NCBI RefSeq assembly: GCF_006345805.1
Contig: NC_043003.1
Coordinates: 113,088,001 to 113,152,000 of the forward strand
Direction of reading: 5' to 3'
Length of the DNA stretch: 64,000 nucleotides
From: Octopus sinensis
Lineage: Eukaryota
Shown here in pieces: positions 1-58,656 of the stretch. The notes below the pieces were generated by a model. It made no database searches. It worked only from the letters and a program-made list of their open reading frames with translations, and had not been told where the DNA came from. How positions within the stretch are numbered: position 1 is the stretch's first letter; every line of letters starts with the position of its first letter. A program made the translations under genes and the position numbers.

Positions 1-262
1 CGGTATGCCAGTTTCTTGGCGTATAGGTTCCCCACCTGGACGGGACGCCGGTCCGTCGCAGGTGAGCTGCAAGATGCAGGAGGAAAGAGGGAGAGAAAGT
101 TGTGGCGAAAGAGTCAGCAGAAGTTCGCCATTACTTTCTGCCGGAGCTGCGTGGAGCTTAGGTGTTTCGCTCATTAACACACACATCGCCCGTTCTGGGA
201 TTCGAACCCGCGATCCCTCGACTGCGAGTCCGTTGCTCTAACCACTAAGCCATGTGCCTCCA
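1..262 (-). mobile_element. tRNA-derived SINE, family A (3' end cut by window edge)
   Basis: Reverse strand begins TGGAGGCACATGGCTTAGTGG (A box) ... GGTTCGAATCCC (B box); body aligns by eye to copies at 9404, 33610 and 44997. Possibly an octopus OR-type SINE (from memory, unverified). Confidence 0.9.
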
Positions 263-10586: not shown

Positions 10587-10896
10587 TATATATACATACA
10601 TACCTTTGCATTATATATGAATATTATTAGAAAGGTGCTGGAAGCCGGTTGCATTACCAGATAGCTTGGTCTTAGGATTCAGTTCTTTATTCCATATGGT
10701 GTGAAGCCAATCATTGCGGGAGACGGTCACGTTTTTGAGAATTAGCGACATTTTATGCATCGAAATAAGAAACAGAAGTACGAGAAAAACTTCAGTTTTA
10801 TATACATATATACATACATACATACATTCGTATACACATATGTGTGTGTATGTGTGCTTGTGTGTCCATGTGTGTGTATGATTATATATATATATA

Positions 10897-14026
<3,130 letters not shown>

Positions 14027-14462: not shown

Positions 14463-15780
14463 CATCATCATCATCATCATCATCATTTAGCGTCCGTTTT
14501 CCATGCTAGCATGGGTTGGACGGTTCTACTGGGGTCTGTGAAGCCAGAAGGCTTCATCAGGCCCAGTCAAATCTGGCAGTGTTTCTACGGCTGGATGCCC
14601 TTCCTAACGCCAACCACTCCGTGAGTGTAGTGGGTGCTTTTTACGTGCCACCCGCACTGGTGCCAGACAGAGCTGGCAAACGGCCACGAACGGATGGTGC
14701 TTTTTATGTGCCACCGGCACGAGGGCCAGGCGAGGCTGGCAACGGACACGAAACGGGGCGGTGCTGGCAACGGTCGCGAAACGGAAAGTTCTCTTACATG
14801 CCACCGGCACTGGTAACACATCTGCAATTTCCATTGATCGATTTCCATTGATCGATTTCGATTCTGATCCTCACTTGCCTCAATGGGTCTTCACAAGCAG
14901 AGTTTCGACATGCCACCGGCACAGGTAGCACATCCGCAATTTCCATTGATCGATTTCGATTCTGATCCTCACTTGCCTCAACACGTCTTCACAAGTAGAG
15001 TTTTGTGTCCCAAGAAGGGAAGGTATGCATACGTAGGCTGGCTCCATCCCATGTAGAAGGCCACAGGTTGTGGACTCACTTGTCCTGCCGGGTCTTCTCG
15101 CGCACAGCACACTTCCAGAGGTCTCGGTCTCTAGTCATTTCCTCAGTGAGACCTAAAGTTCGAAGGTCGTGCTTCACCACCTCGTCCCAGGTTTTCCTGG
15201 GTCTGCCTCTTCCACAGGTTCCCTCAACCGCTAGGGTGTGGCACTTTTTCACACAACTATCTTCATCCATTCTCGCCACATGACCATACCAGCGCAAACG
15301 TCTCTCTTGCACACCACAACTGATGCTTCTTAGGTCCAGCTTTTCTCTCAAGGTACTTACACTCTGCCGAGTGTGAGTACCGGCATTACACATCCATCGG
15401 AGCATACTGGCTTCATTTCTAGCGAGCTTACGCATATCCTCAGCAGTCACGGCCCATGTTTCACTGCCATGTAGCATGGCTGTTCGTACACACGCATCAT
15501 ACAGTCTGCCTTTCACTCTGTGCGAGAGGCCTTTTGTCACCAGCAGAGGTAAGAGCTCTCTGAACTTTGCCCAAGCTATTCTTACTCTAGCAGTTACACT
15601 TTCAGCACACCCACCCCCGCTGCTGACTTGGTCACCTAGGTAACGGAAACTATCAACTATTTCTAGTTTTTCTCCCTGGAAAGTGACGAAGTTGGTCTCA
15701 GAGCATTTTCAGTGTTTATTGTTCCTGAGCATCTGCCACATACAAAAACCATCTTCCTAGTTAGCCTTCCTTTGACATTG

Positions 15781-23289: not shown

Positions 23290-23557
23290 TCTACCGGATC
23301 CGACCATGAGTGTTCCAATGGATGCGATCAACCGAACAATTTACTACTGAAGTAAGTGGTTTAGCGCTCGACAGACACGCGTAACCTTCGCGCAGATCTC
23401 CGGGAGATTCTGCATGTTACAAATCTCGCCCTATTAATTACAGGTAAAACTTATTTCAGTGAGCTGGACCAACAAGAAATAAAGTGTTTGCTCAAGGACA
23501 CAAGGGCCACTAGGAATCGAGCTCAGGATCGTAAGCCGAATATTCTAGGCACTAACC
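23290..23557 (-). mobile_element. Degenerate tRNA-headed SINE related to family E
   Basis: gagctggaccaacaagaaataaagtgtttgctcaaggacacaa...ggaatcgagctc matches the 5' half of the 26130 element; 3' half differs. Confidence 0.6.
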
Positions 23558-23559
23558 CT

Positions 23560-24000
23560 TATTGTCTGTTTCCTGTCCTGTTTCTTTATTTGTACTGTTT
23601 TTTCTTCATTTGTATTGTTTGATTTTCATTTGCATTGCTTTTACTTCCTGTTTTTTGTCACTTGTTTTACTCCTCTGCAAAAGAATTTTATTTAATTCCT
23701 TTTGCAGGAAGGGCTGCTTCGACTGTGTTCTGTCCTTACCTTCGAAACACACTTTGAGTCGAACCAGGGACAGCTGATGAAGGGGAATTTTCCTTGTATT
23801 GTTTGTCCTGTACTCTGTTTTTTCGTTGTTTTAAAAAAAGTCCGTTTCCTTGTTTGAATTTATGTTCTCGTCTCTCGTTGTGTTCTACGTTTATTTGTGG
23901 TGTCCTGTACTCATATATATATATATGTATGCATGTATATATACATTTAGATGTAAGTATGTACATATATGTATGTATATATGCATATATTTTATTTATT
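23560..24000 (+). repeat. Interspersed repeat family F copy 1 (probable Penelope-like terminus; carries hammerhead core segments)
   Basis: Colinear with 57940-58450: T-rich lead, gcaggaagg..gaaacac..gagtcgaac..gacagctgatga, two tgtcctgtactc motifs, TA-rich end. Confidence 0.8.
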
Positions 24001-24023
24001 TATTATATTACTATATATATATA

Positions 24024-57416: not shown

Positions 57417-57644
57417 AAGCAATAATGCCGTTAAATGGCTAAACAATAAAATTTCATAATGCTCCGAGTGCTCTGCATGTCATGGAAGTAACAGCTGTAA
57501 ACTAATGAGGCTGATTACGCAATTCCTGTTTCCTTGTCATTCACGTAATTTAACATTACGAATAACACTTTACTCCCAAATTTATATGTCTTAAGTTACA
57601 CCATCAGGTTATAAGTACCACTATGCCTAAGAGAAATCTTAAAA

Positions 57645-57675
<31 letters not shown>

Positions 57676-57939
57676 ATCTATCTATAATTATGACGCGAAA
57701 TTCTCTTCTCTTTGCTTTACCTTCCCCTCTCTCTCTCTCTCTCTCACTCTTCCTCATCTCTCTCTCAGCCGCTTGTCTTCCTCTATCTCTCTCTCTCTCT
57801 CACTCCTCCTCATCTTTGTCACTGCTAGCCAAAACTACTTCCTTTTACACGCGGCTTTCAAACTGTAAAGACACACATCTGTGTTCCCATGCGCTGCTAG
57901 AATCTCCTCGTCTAAGCCAGAAAAAAAGGCCTTTTCGTT

Positions 57940-58450
57940 TGTTTTCTTGTTTGTTTTCTTGTTTATTTTTATTTCTCGTATTGTATTTTCTTTTTATTTC
58001 TCGTATTGCATTTTCTTTTTATTTCTCGTATTGTATTTTCTTGTACATATATTTTATCTTGTATTTTATTTTGTAGTTTTATTTGTATCGTTTTTACGTC
58101 CTTTTTGTTACATTTTTTTCTTGCTTGTGTTTACCCCTCTGCGAGGTAATTTTATTTTAACTCTCTCGCAGGAAGGACTAATTTGGCGAGTCGTGTCCTG
58201 TCTTGCCTTTGAAACACTCTAGAGTCGAACTAGTGACAGCTGATGATAGGTAATTTTTCCTTGTGTAGTATGTCCTGTACTCTGTTTTTCTGTTGTAAAA
58301 AAATGGTTTTTCCTTTTTCGTTTCTCGTTGAGTTCTACGTCTAGTTGTGGTGTCCTGTACTCACGTATATATATTTATATATGCATGTATATATACATGT
58401 AGATGTAGGTACGTACATATATGTTTGTATGTATGCATATATTTTATCTA
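57940..58450 (+). repeat. Interspersed repeat family F copy 2
   Basis: Colinear with 23560-24000; T-rich lead has three tttttatttctcgtattg units. Confidence 0.8.
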
Positions 58451-58454
58451 TTAC

Positions 58455-58455
58455 A

Positions 58456-58550
<95 letters not shown>
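58455..58550. repeat. (TCTA)n microsatellite
   Basis: Direct reading. Confidence 0.95.
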
Positions 58551-58551
<1 letters not shown>

Positions 58552-58593
58552 ATAAATATCTATAAAATAATATGTTACTTTACTCAATAGTCA

Positions 58594-58656
58594 AGATAAA
58601 ACTCTGAGTTTCAGATGCCGAAGTGGAAATCCACAACACCATCTCCTCGGTTATCT
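58594..58656 (-). ncRNA. Hammerhead ribozyme-like motif (type I, U4C and U17 variant)
   Basis: Minus strand agataa-CCGAGGA-gatg..gtgga-tt-tccac..catc-t-GAAA-ctcagag-TT-ttatct; perfect 6-bp stem I, quasi-palindromic stem III. Confidence 0.65.

Follow-up and report, generated by a model that had tools for sequence, protein, structure and literature searches.

A hammerhead-like motif in permuted order

The 64-kb window, i.e., the whole stretch of DNA that was analysed, contains two plus-strand copies of a dispersed repeat of about 770–870 nt that has no open reading frame. The copy at 58 kb (57679..58459) belongs to subfamily B, runs into (CTAT)n/(TA)n and aligns by blastn with a partial-tandem copy, L026 (87% identity, 795 columns). 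The other copy (23544..24016), delimited by blastn and by its sequence, is a 5'-truncated member of subfamily A with an intact motif: G10.1 lies at 23708, the predicted cut falls after 23729, and GAAA and CTGATGA occupy 23744-47 and 23774-80. Alignment of the 58-kb copy with 23598-23946 gave 74% identity over 367 columns; the 23.6-kb copy is a different subfamily of the dispersed repeat and no local duplicate.

The original prediction described a reversed hammerhead arrangement with a GUC site at 58178-58250, and direct reading of the sequence located all of the quoted letters there. On the plus strand, a stem III strand GTG (58193-95) is followed by TC, i.e., U16.1 (58196) and C17 (58197; predicted cut directly after C17), and by the stem I 3' strand CTGTC (58198-202); sequence and covariation delimit these parts as block S (58193..58202). 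Block G (58206..58217), delimited by sequence, covariation, and contigs, comprises the stem II 3' strand CCTTT (58206-10), GAAA (58211-14), and the stem III strand CAC (58215-17). The stem I 5' strand GACAG (58235-39) and CTGATGA (58240-46) follow at 58235..58246, again by sequence and covariation, with CTGATGA forming the 3' half of a split block C. Named after the blocks of Eckert et al. 2023 (PMC10085705), the parts run from S, with the cleavage site, through G, with GAAA, to C, with CUGAnGA; types I, II, and III have the cyclic order C-G-S. The reversed, non-circularly permuted order (site, GAAA, CUGAUGA) is therefore confirmed, as is the GUC site at the level of sequence, the cut itself being predicted.

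Upstream of the cleavage site lies the putative stem II 5' strand (58172..58176, G10.1 at 58172), placed by cross-family comparison and the covariation set, which splits block C. It is abutted at G10.1 by a hairpin, P0 (58139..58171; arms 58139-45 and 58165-71), supported by covariation in 26 copies. An outer helix, also supported by covariation, pairs 58177..58183 with 58228..58234 and extends stem III, with one mismatch in the 58-kb copy. The 5'-3' order by covariation is P0, stem II 5' strand, outer helix, stem III, UH, stem I, and a short linker, then stem II 3' strand, GAAA, stem III, outer helix, stem I, and CUGANGA. Stems I, II, and III cross, i.e., they form a double pseudoknot. Rfam returned no match at the gathering threshold anywhere in the 64-kb window. 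Within 57600-58600, an E limit of 10 still brought up no hammerhead family, the loose-E matches there being microsatellite-driven and miRNA-like.

The 58-kb copy has a T at position C11.1 (58210), giving G-U where the G10.1-C11.1 pair is G-C in 24 of 26 copies. All covering assembled contigs from three public runs have C at 58210, and the T is private to this copy. Given the loss of C11.1 and other private substitutions, the 58-kb copy is probably an inactive fossil.

Covariation of the predicted helices

The structure was assessed in an alignment of 26 natural copies from about ten subfamilies, in which covariation cells count copies rather than events and kinship among copies inflates the counts. 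Across the 24-pair structure, 86.7% of cells were paired and 74 were compensatory, compared to 26.7 in shuffles (0/500), while slid-register controls reached at most 44.5% paired. Pairing was 97% for stem I (compensatory change at three of four pairs), 93% for stem III (three of five), 78.7% for the outer helix (nine of nine), and 92.8% for P0 (four of seven). The core letters CUGANGA, GAAA, and NUH were invariant or almost so while these helices covaried; both CUGANGA and CGAAAC were kept in 49 of the 57 scored copies of subfamilies A and B. The conservation of stems I and III across diverged copies, also part of the original prediction, thus extends across subfamilies of the genome, and because both stems covary, the compensatory changes exclude the view that ctgtc/gacag is mere internal repetition of tgtcctgt. 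With respect to the interaction helix of Eckert et al., which joins the flanks of stems I and II, it is instead the outer helix and P0 that covary; pairing of the P0 loop with the tail after A9 (58247..58262, plus strand) is a possibility in which no compensatory change was seen among the 26 copies.

A descriptor requiring the S-G-C strand order and stems I and III matched once in the real window, compared to no matches in 100 dinucleotide shuffles or in reversed loci. This single match is the 23.7-kb copy; the 58-kb copy was missed because its C11.1 reads T. Over the loci and window together, there were 103 matches in 850,084 bases and 0 in the reversed sequences. As the loci had been selected mainly by the G...C pattern, chance was judged solely by the controls and by unplanned matches in flanks (L029, L100, and L111).

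Nested-fold stability showed no excess over shuffles (z = 1.12, −0.82, 0.00, and −0.88, plus strands); this is as expected because the stems cross, and it was not counted as support. In the predicted minimum-energy fold of both window copies, the bases adjacent to GAAA are paired elsewhere, which corresponds to an inactive form. It is possible, from this modeling, that the RNA switches between the active fold and this nested one, the latter serving as an off state. At the internal loop between stem III and the outer helix, subfamily G (L111-L118) has GAA opposite AGUA, a possible hinge that we take to resemble the loop E/sarcin-ricin motif; in its place, other subfamilies show either tandem GA or a simple bulge.

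The carrier repeat

A 29-letter tail motif of the repeat has 1,734 exact matches in the genome, compared to 0 for a control, and indicates at least 1,734 copies. For each window copy, the 40 relatives scored from more than 2,000 candidates were mostly 93–99% identical. Most copies are single and truncated, and tandem units lie 767 and 833 nt apart. By eye, we observed partial tandems, inverted 5'-truncated copies, short tails, and (TA)n, AT-rich, or microsatellite flanks (L026, L040, L129, L120, and L075/L076). Partial tandems, inverted truncated copies, tails, and (TA)n targets are described as traits of Penelope-like elements (PMC8557442), and the carrier is likely a non-autonomous retroelement of this kind (Naiad-type). 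No ORF was attached to the family of the 58-kb copy in the loci examined. A search for an autonomous partner yielded none, the nearby GIY-YIG fragments varying in strand and in distance relative to the motif.

Other hammerhead-like and retroelement sequences were noted during this survey. Two GIY-YIG-associated families end, by eye, in canonical type I motifs. Minimal type I hammerhead-like motifs in canonical order occur at L185 (minus, ~1300-1370), L098 (plus, ~1580-1615), and L091 (minus, between its two copies); two of these lie downstream of C-terminal GIY-YIG fragments, and both wirings coexist in the genome. An abundant RTE-like LINE 3' end (window ~14530-14600, minus; L067-L090) carries GAAACAC with CTGATGA 18 nt later, and hammerhead stems were not seen in it. 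Most of the listed matches among the 8,617 from one motif search were to this LINE 3' end, and we rejected that figure as a copy number. Open frames of a LINE at 10746-13770 on the plus strand (endonuclease-like at 10746-12026, reverse-transcriptase-like at 11947-13770) are unrelated to the motif.

Insertion 5' ends cluster after the predicted cut

We mapped the 5' boundaries of the first 90 of the 1,734 tail-motif matches, anchored ~125-200 nt downstream of the site, against natural full copies; positions beyond about −170 are unreliable (low complexity, window limit). There were 22 of 90 5' ends at 0..24 after the predicted cut, compared to four at −25..−1 and four at 25..49 (binomial p = 2.7e-4 for each neighboring bin; Poisson p = 3.5e-10 against the downstream rate). 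Wider bins held 16 ends at 25..124 and eight at −125..−1. No end fell at −9..−1, placing the left edge of the peak at the predicted cut. A second set with its anchor at +26..+48, comprising 90 of 321 matches and partly the same loci, gave 22 compared to 5. The peak is a 24-nt smear: only two ends lie exactly at the cut, one of them (L298) an internal deletion. Four fold-back junctions and one internal deletion are among the 22 peak ends, and two of the four upstream ends are duplicates.

The peak is most simply explained by reverse transcriptase running off the ends of RNAs cleaved at the predicted site, with small losses at the junctions afterwards; Penelope reverse transcription has been shown to initiate internally (PMC11167929). 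Read in this way, the peak is indirect evidence of cleavage in vivo. Alternatively, the structure could be conserved but non-catalytic, or an ex-ribozyme retained as a site to which the Penelope reverse transcriptase/endonuclease binds, with the peak arising from stalling of the enzyme in the knot. The smearing of 5' ends over 24 nt would fit stalling, and metazoan Penelope minimal hammerheads are reported to cleave weakly in vitro (PMC4209133). We nevertheless regard this explanation as unlikely, given that the catalytic letters and NUH site are all kept across families with wholly different helices, that the left edge of the peak coincides with the predicted cut, and that the 3' edge of the structure (25..49), where a stall would first be expected, accounts for only 4 of 90 ends.

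A likely upstream partner for stem II

The strand before GAAA complements a strand upstream of the cleavage site that starts with G (58172-58176), which produces the canonical G10.1-C11.1 pair. At least four Watson-Crick pairs with this upstream strand are present in 85 of 103 descriptor matches, such pairing being no requirement of the descriptor. We compared the pairing of each family's own strands with that of strands swapped between families; the families and the search window were picked post hoc, with the data already seen, and for the 16-family test the descriptor itself demanded stems I and III. Own upstream partners formed 4.44 pairs compared to 2.76 for swapped partners in 16 families (0 of 20,000 permutations), and 4.77 compared to 2.53 in 13 families (0 of 50,000). 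Downstream, own partners were not better than swapped ones (15,967 of 20,000 permutations for 16 families; 16,632 of 50,000 for 13 families, with 2.46 own and 2.33 swapped pairs). Within the superfamily of the 58-kb copy, the first five stem II pairs are nearly invariant and the sixth is broken in 15 of 26 copies; the case for the upstream partner therefore rests on the cross-family comparison. In unrelated families, G10.1 keeps a similar spacing, mostly preceding G12 by 34-46 nt.

The same split S-G-C fold occurs in five or more additional repeat families of the genome that are distinct in sequence (L120, L126-L128, L133, L135, L137, L138, L145, L147, L148, L154, L156, L157, and L111 minus 5785). 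Together, the comparisons suggest that stem II is likely completed by the upstream strand and that the break in the CUGAUGA block falls between A9 and G10.1; with the stem II strand upstream rather than after CUGAUGA, the backbone would be open at this step.

The original prediction instead formed stem II from cctt and the tagg that follows CTGATGA. This was also our initial reading, and it was dropped: the downstream helix had 0 compensatory cells (500 of 500 shuffles scored as high) and no family-specific signal. An earlier reading of a hairpin inserted after A9 in other families was dropped after family comparisons.

A downstream helix would make the motif an ordinary type-SGC hammerhead, with block C intact and stem II formed with the G-run after CUGAUGA behind a one- or two-base insertion, as in HRIMA-1. 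Four downstream pairs (G-C, G-U, G-U, and G-C) are indeed possible in 22-26 of the 26 superfamily copies, and the published descriptor of HRIMA-1 has one inserted U at this place (PMC10085705). We consider this quite unlikely, however, since the helix lacks both compensatory change and family-specific signal, as above, and since most copies of the other families and of the Naiad family form 0-3 pairs downstream compared to 4-6 upstream.

Just 5' of G10.1 (58150-58172), subfamilies A, B, and C have a pyrimidine-rich run and CAG that resemble a 3' splice site. G3, K, M, and the Naiad family lack the AG, and pairing in P0 can account for the letters.

Proposed mechanism

We judge it likely that the 58-kb element is a decayed copy of a predicted S-G-C hammerhead, its stem II likely completed upstream, in a non-coding and likely non-autonomous Penelope-like (Naiad-type) repeat. 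In intact copies, the outer helix (about 9-10 bp past the internal loop) would bend and act as a strut, returning the chain from where stem III ends to the end of stem I, while P0 would position G10.1. A standard hammerhead core could then form and cut after C17. Hammerhead cores cleave directly 3' of H17 and generate 2',3'-cyclic phosphate and 5'-OH ends. The cut would set the 5' end of the element RNA, or would split tandem read-through transcripts into unit lengths. We infer a helper protein in trans: a Penelope-type reverse transcriptase/endonuclease would start copying the RNA internally, close to its 3' end, and run off at the cut, a proposal that would account for the many insertions whose 5' ends lie just past the cut.

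The linker between the outer helix and stem I is only 0-1 nt in cis, which raises the question of whether the same core forms in trans between two copies or tandem units. Besides this very short linker, the tandem copies 767 and 833 nt apart would accommodate such a dimer, and dimer cleavage is known for Penelope minimal hammerheads (PMC4209133). We find a dimer very unlikely, as stem III has its full 3-5 bp and an outer helix, unlike the short palindromic stem of dimer forms, and as SGC forms with a zero-length linker have been published (PMC10085705).

The original prediction also proposed an overlapping conventional hammerhead that shares the GAAA. Its letters are present in the 58-kb copy; the type I hammerhead that they were taken to form is unsupported. 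At the place of its core (58184-58189), where the family consensus might have restored TGACGA/CTGACGA, 0 of the 100 copies listed (of 327) read CTGAC and the commonest form among them is TCGAC. This pairs with a downstream GTCGA, burying the second 'GTC' in the outer helix. The segment is one arm of that covarying helix; subfamilies A, C, E, G, I, and J either lack it or have a different one. The palindromic TCTAGA loop proposed for this fold is the product of a substitution at 58218 that is private to the 58-kb copy, the covering contigs (X2, X8, and X15) having mostly or wholly G. A switch between type I and reversed hammerheads with two cleavage sites is therefore without support and highly improbable, even though some copies read TTGACGA, one letter off the core, in what is otherwise a covarying helix arm.

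Relationship to described hammerheads

We regard the motif as a real and probably catalytic variant of the hammerhead class, SGC-like but without an intact block C. It has the hammerhead core letters, covarying stems I, II, and III (stem II via the upstream strand), and the G10.1-C11.1 pair. With the type-SGC hammerheads (HRIMA-1 and variants) described in the portions of PMC10085705 drawn on here, it shares the S-G-C order, a conserved core, crossing stems, and a short linker between stems I and II; type-SGC hammerheads, among them forms with a linker of roughly 3 nt, cleave in vitro, the rates for the type being 0.007-0.19 per minute (PMC10085705). The two differ in the split. For type SGC, block C is assumed to be uninterruptible, with stem II after CUGAnGA (PMC10085705), whereas in the octopus repeat this strand lies upstream of the cleavage site and no stem II strand begins 1-2 nt after CUGAnGA. 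The published type-SGC descriptor permits only CUGAUGAG or CUGAUGAUG plus a 0-15 nt linker (PMC10085705); when re-coded, it matched once in 401 loci, and the octopus folds would therefore escape it. The motifs in that study derive from metatranscriptomes and metagenomes, and a single bacterial GCS candidate is the only one placed in a known genome.

The repeat also resembles the minimal type I hammerheads of Penelope pLTRs (PMC4209133) and the non-LTR retrozymes (bioRxiv 10.64898/2026.07.22.740005), as described in the parts of these sources used here: all place a hammerhead in a Penelope-related, tandem, non-coding repeat, with the extra nucleotide(s) after A9 and G10.1-C11.1. Those hammerheads are type I (C-G-S), function as dimers, and have a stem III that is minimal or absent; the octopus repeat has units of about 770-870 nt and a long stem III. 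Whereas non-LTR retrozymes carry a type I hammerhead in each tandem unit, the order here is S-G-C and the copies are mostly single and truncated.

We found no description of a split-core hammerhead, or of permuted hammerheads in Naiads, in the literature searched, which leaves most subscription journals outside; the available portions of PMC3088659, PMC10162972, PMC12192606, and PMC11167929 describe nothing of the split-core kind. Hammerhead variants with additional helices are mentioned in PMC13725137, citing Weinberg 2015 (PMC4509812), and a helix at the A9-G10.1 step may have been described earlier (Weinberg 2015; Lunse 2017).

The split fold, by eye, in Naiad elements

Naiad Penelope-like elements, as far as presented in the parts of PMC8557442 considered here, share with the octopus repeat the (TA)n targets, partial tandems, inverted truncated copies, tails, and, by eye, the split fold; they carry an ORF, whereas the octopus repeat has none. 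Naiads were reported to lack canonical hammerheads, and eight, including Naiad_Ovul, were marked 'HHR_half_core' (PMC8557442). We surveyed 60 of the 81 CGAAAC passages in the supplement of that paper by eye, the record names being mostly not visible. The same split fold with upstream stem II is seen in octopus Naiad 3' ends (passages 32-33) and in passages 1, 4-6, and 8, while passages 11, 13-16, 19, and 20 have an intact C-S-G order, three of them adjoining nematode headers. In the consulted portion of PMC10085705, type CSG is known from only two metagenomic sequences.

The octopus Naiad 3' motif has 464 matches in the genome, compared to 2 for a control. In 12 of 30 loci, it lies 461-1,375 nt downstream, on the same strand, of a fragment that by our own reading is reverse transcriptase thumb-like; a Pfam search of this fragment named no family. 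A search with the Naiad fragment for a partner of the carrier returned only the Naiad-type tail, and we found no sequence link of the carrier to Naiad_Ovul beyond the fold. Nor does the carrier family have the Naiad-clade ORF with N-terminal GIY-YIG, CxC, DKA motif, and RT. As the sole link is the shared fold, we do not file the carrier as a Naiad.

It is reasonably probable, in our assessment, that the fold is an active topology beyond the six block orders of 2023, opened between A9 and G10.1; that it is the missing Naiad ribozyme across several animal phyla, with intact C-S-G in other Naiads; and that it sets the 5' end of thousands of insertions. The description of non-circular RNA permutations dates only from 2023 and drew on environmental sequence whose hosts are unknown (PMC10085705). 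With the predicted fold, an animal genome would now hold thousands of copies of one, and the stated rule of an uninterruptible CUGAnGA would be broken. It also offers a possible answer to why Naiads seemed hammerhead-free, and the 5'-end peak bears genome-wide, albeit indirectly, on the question of in vivo cutting by Penelope hammerheads and its purpose.

A further observation concerns the record that ends just before Naiad_Obim in the same supplement (PMC8557442). A hammerhead was not seen in the portion of its 3' end inspected; this end carries ACCGTTCCAAGGCGGT, which resembles segments of twister ribozymes, and some Naiads possibly have another ribozyme class.
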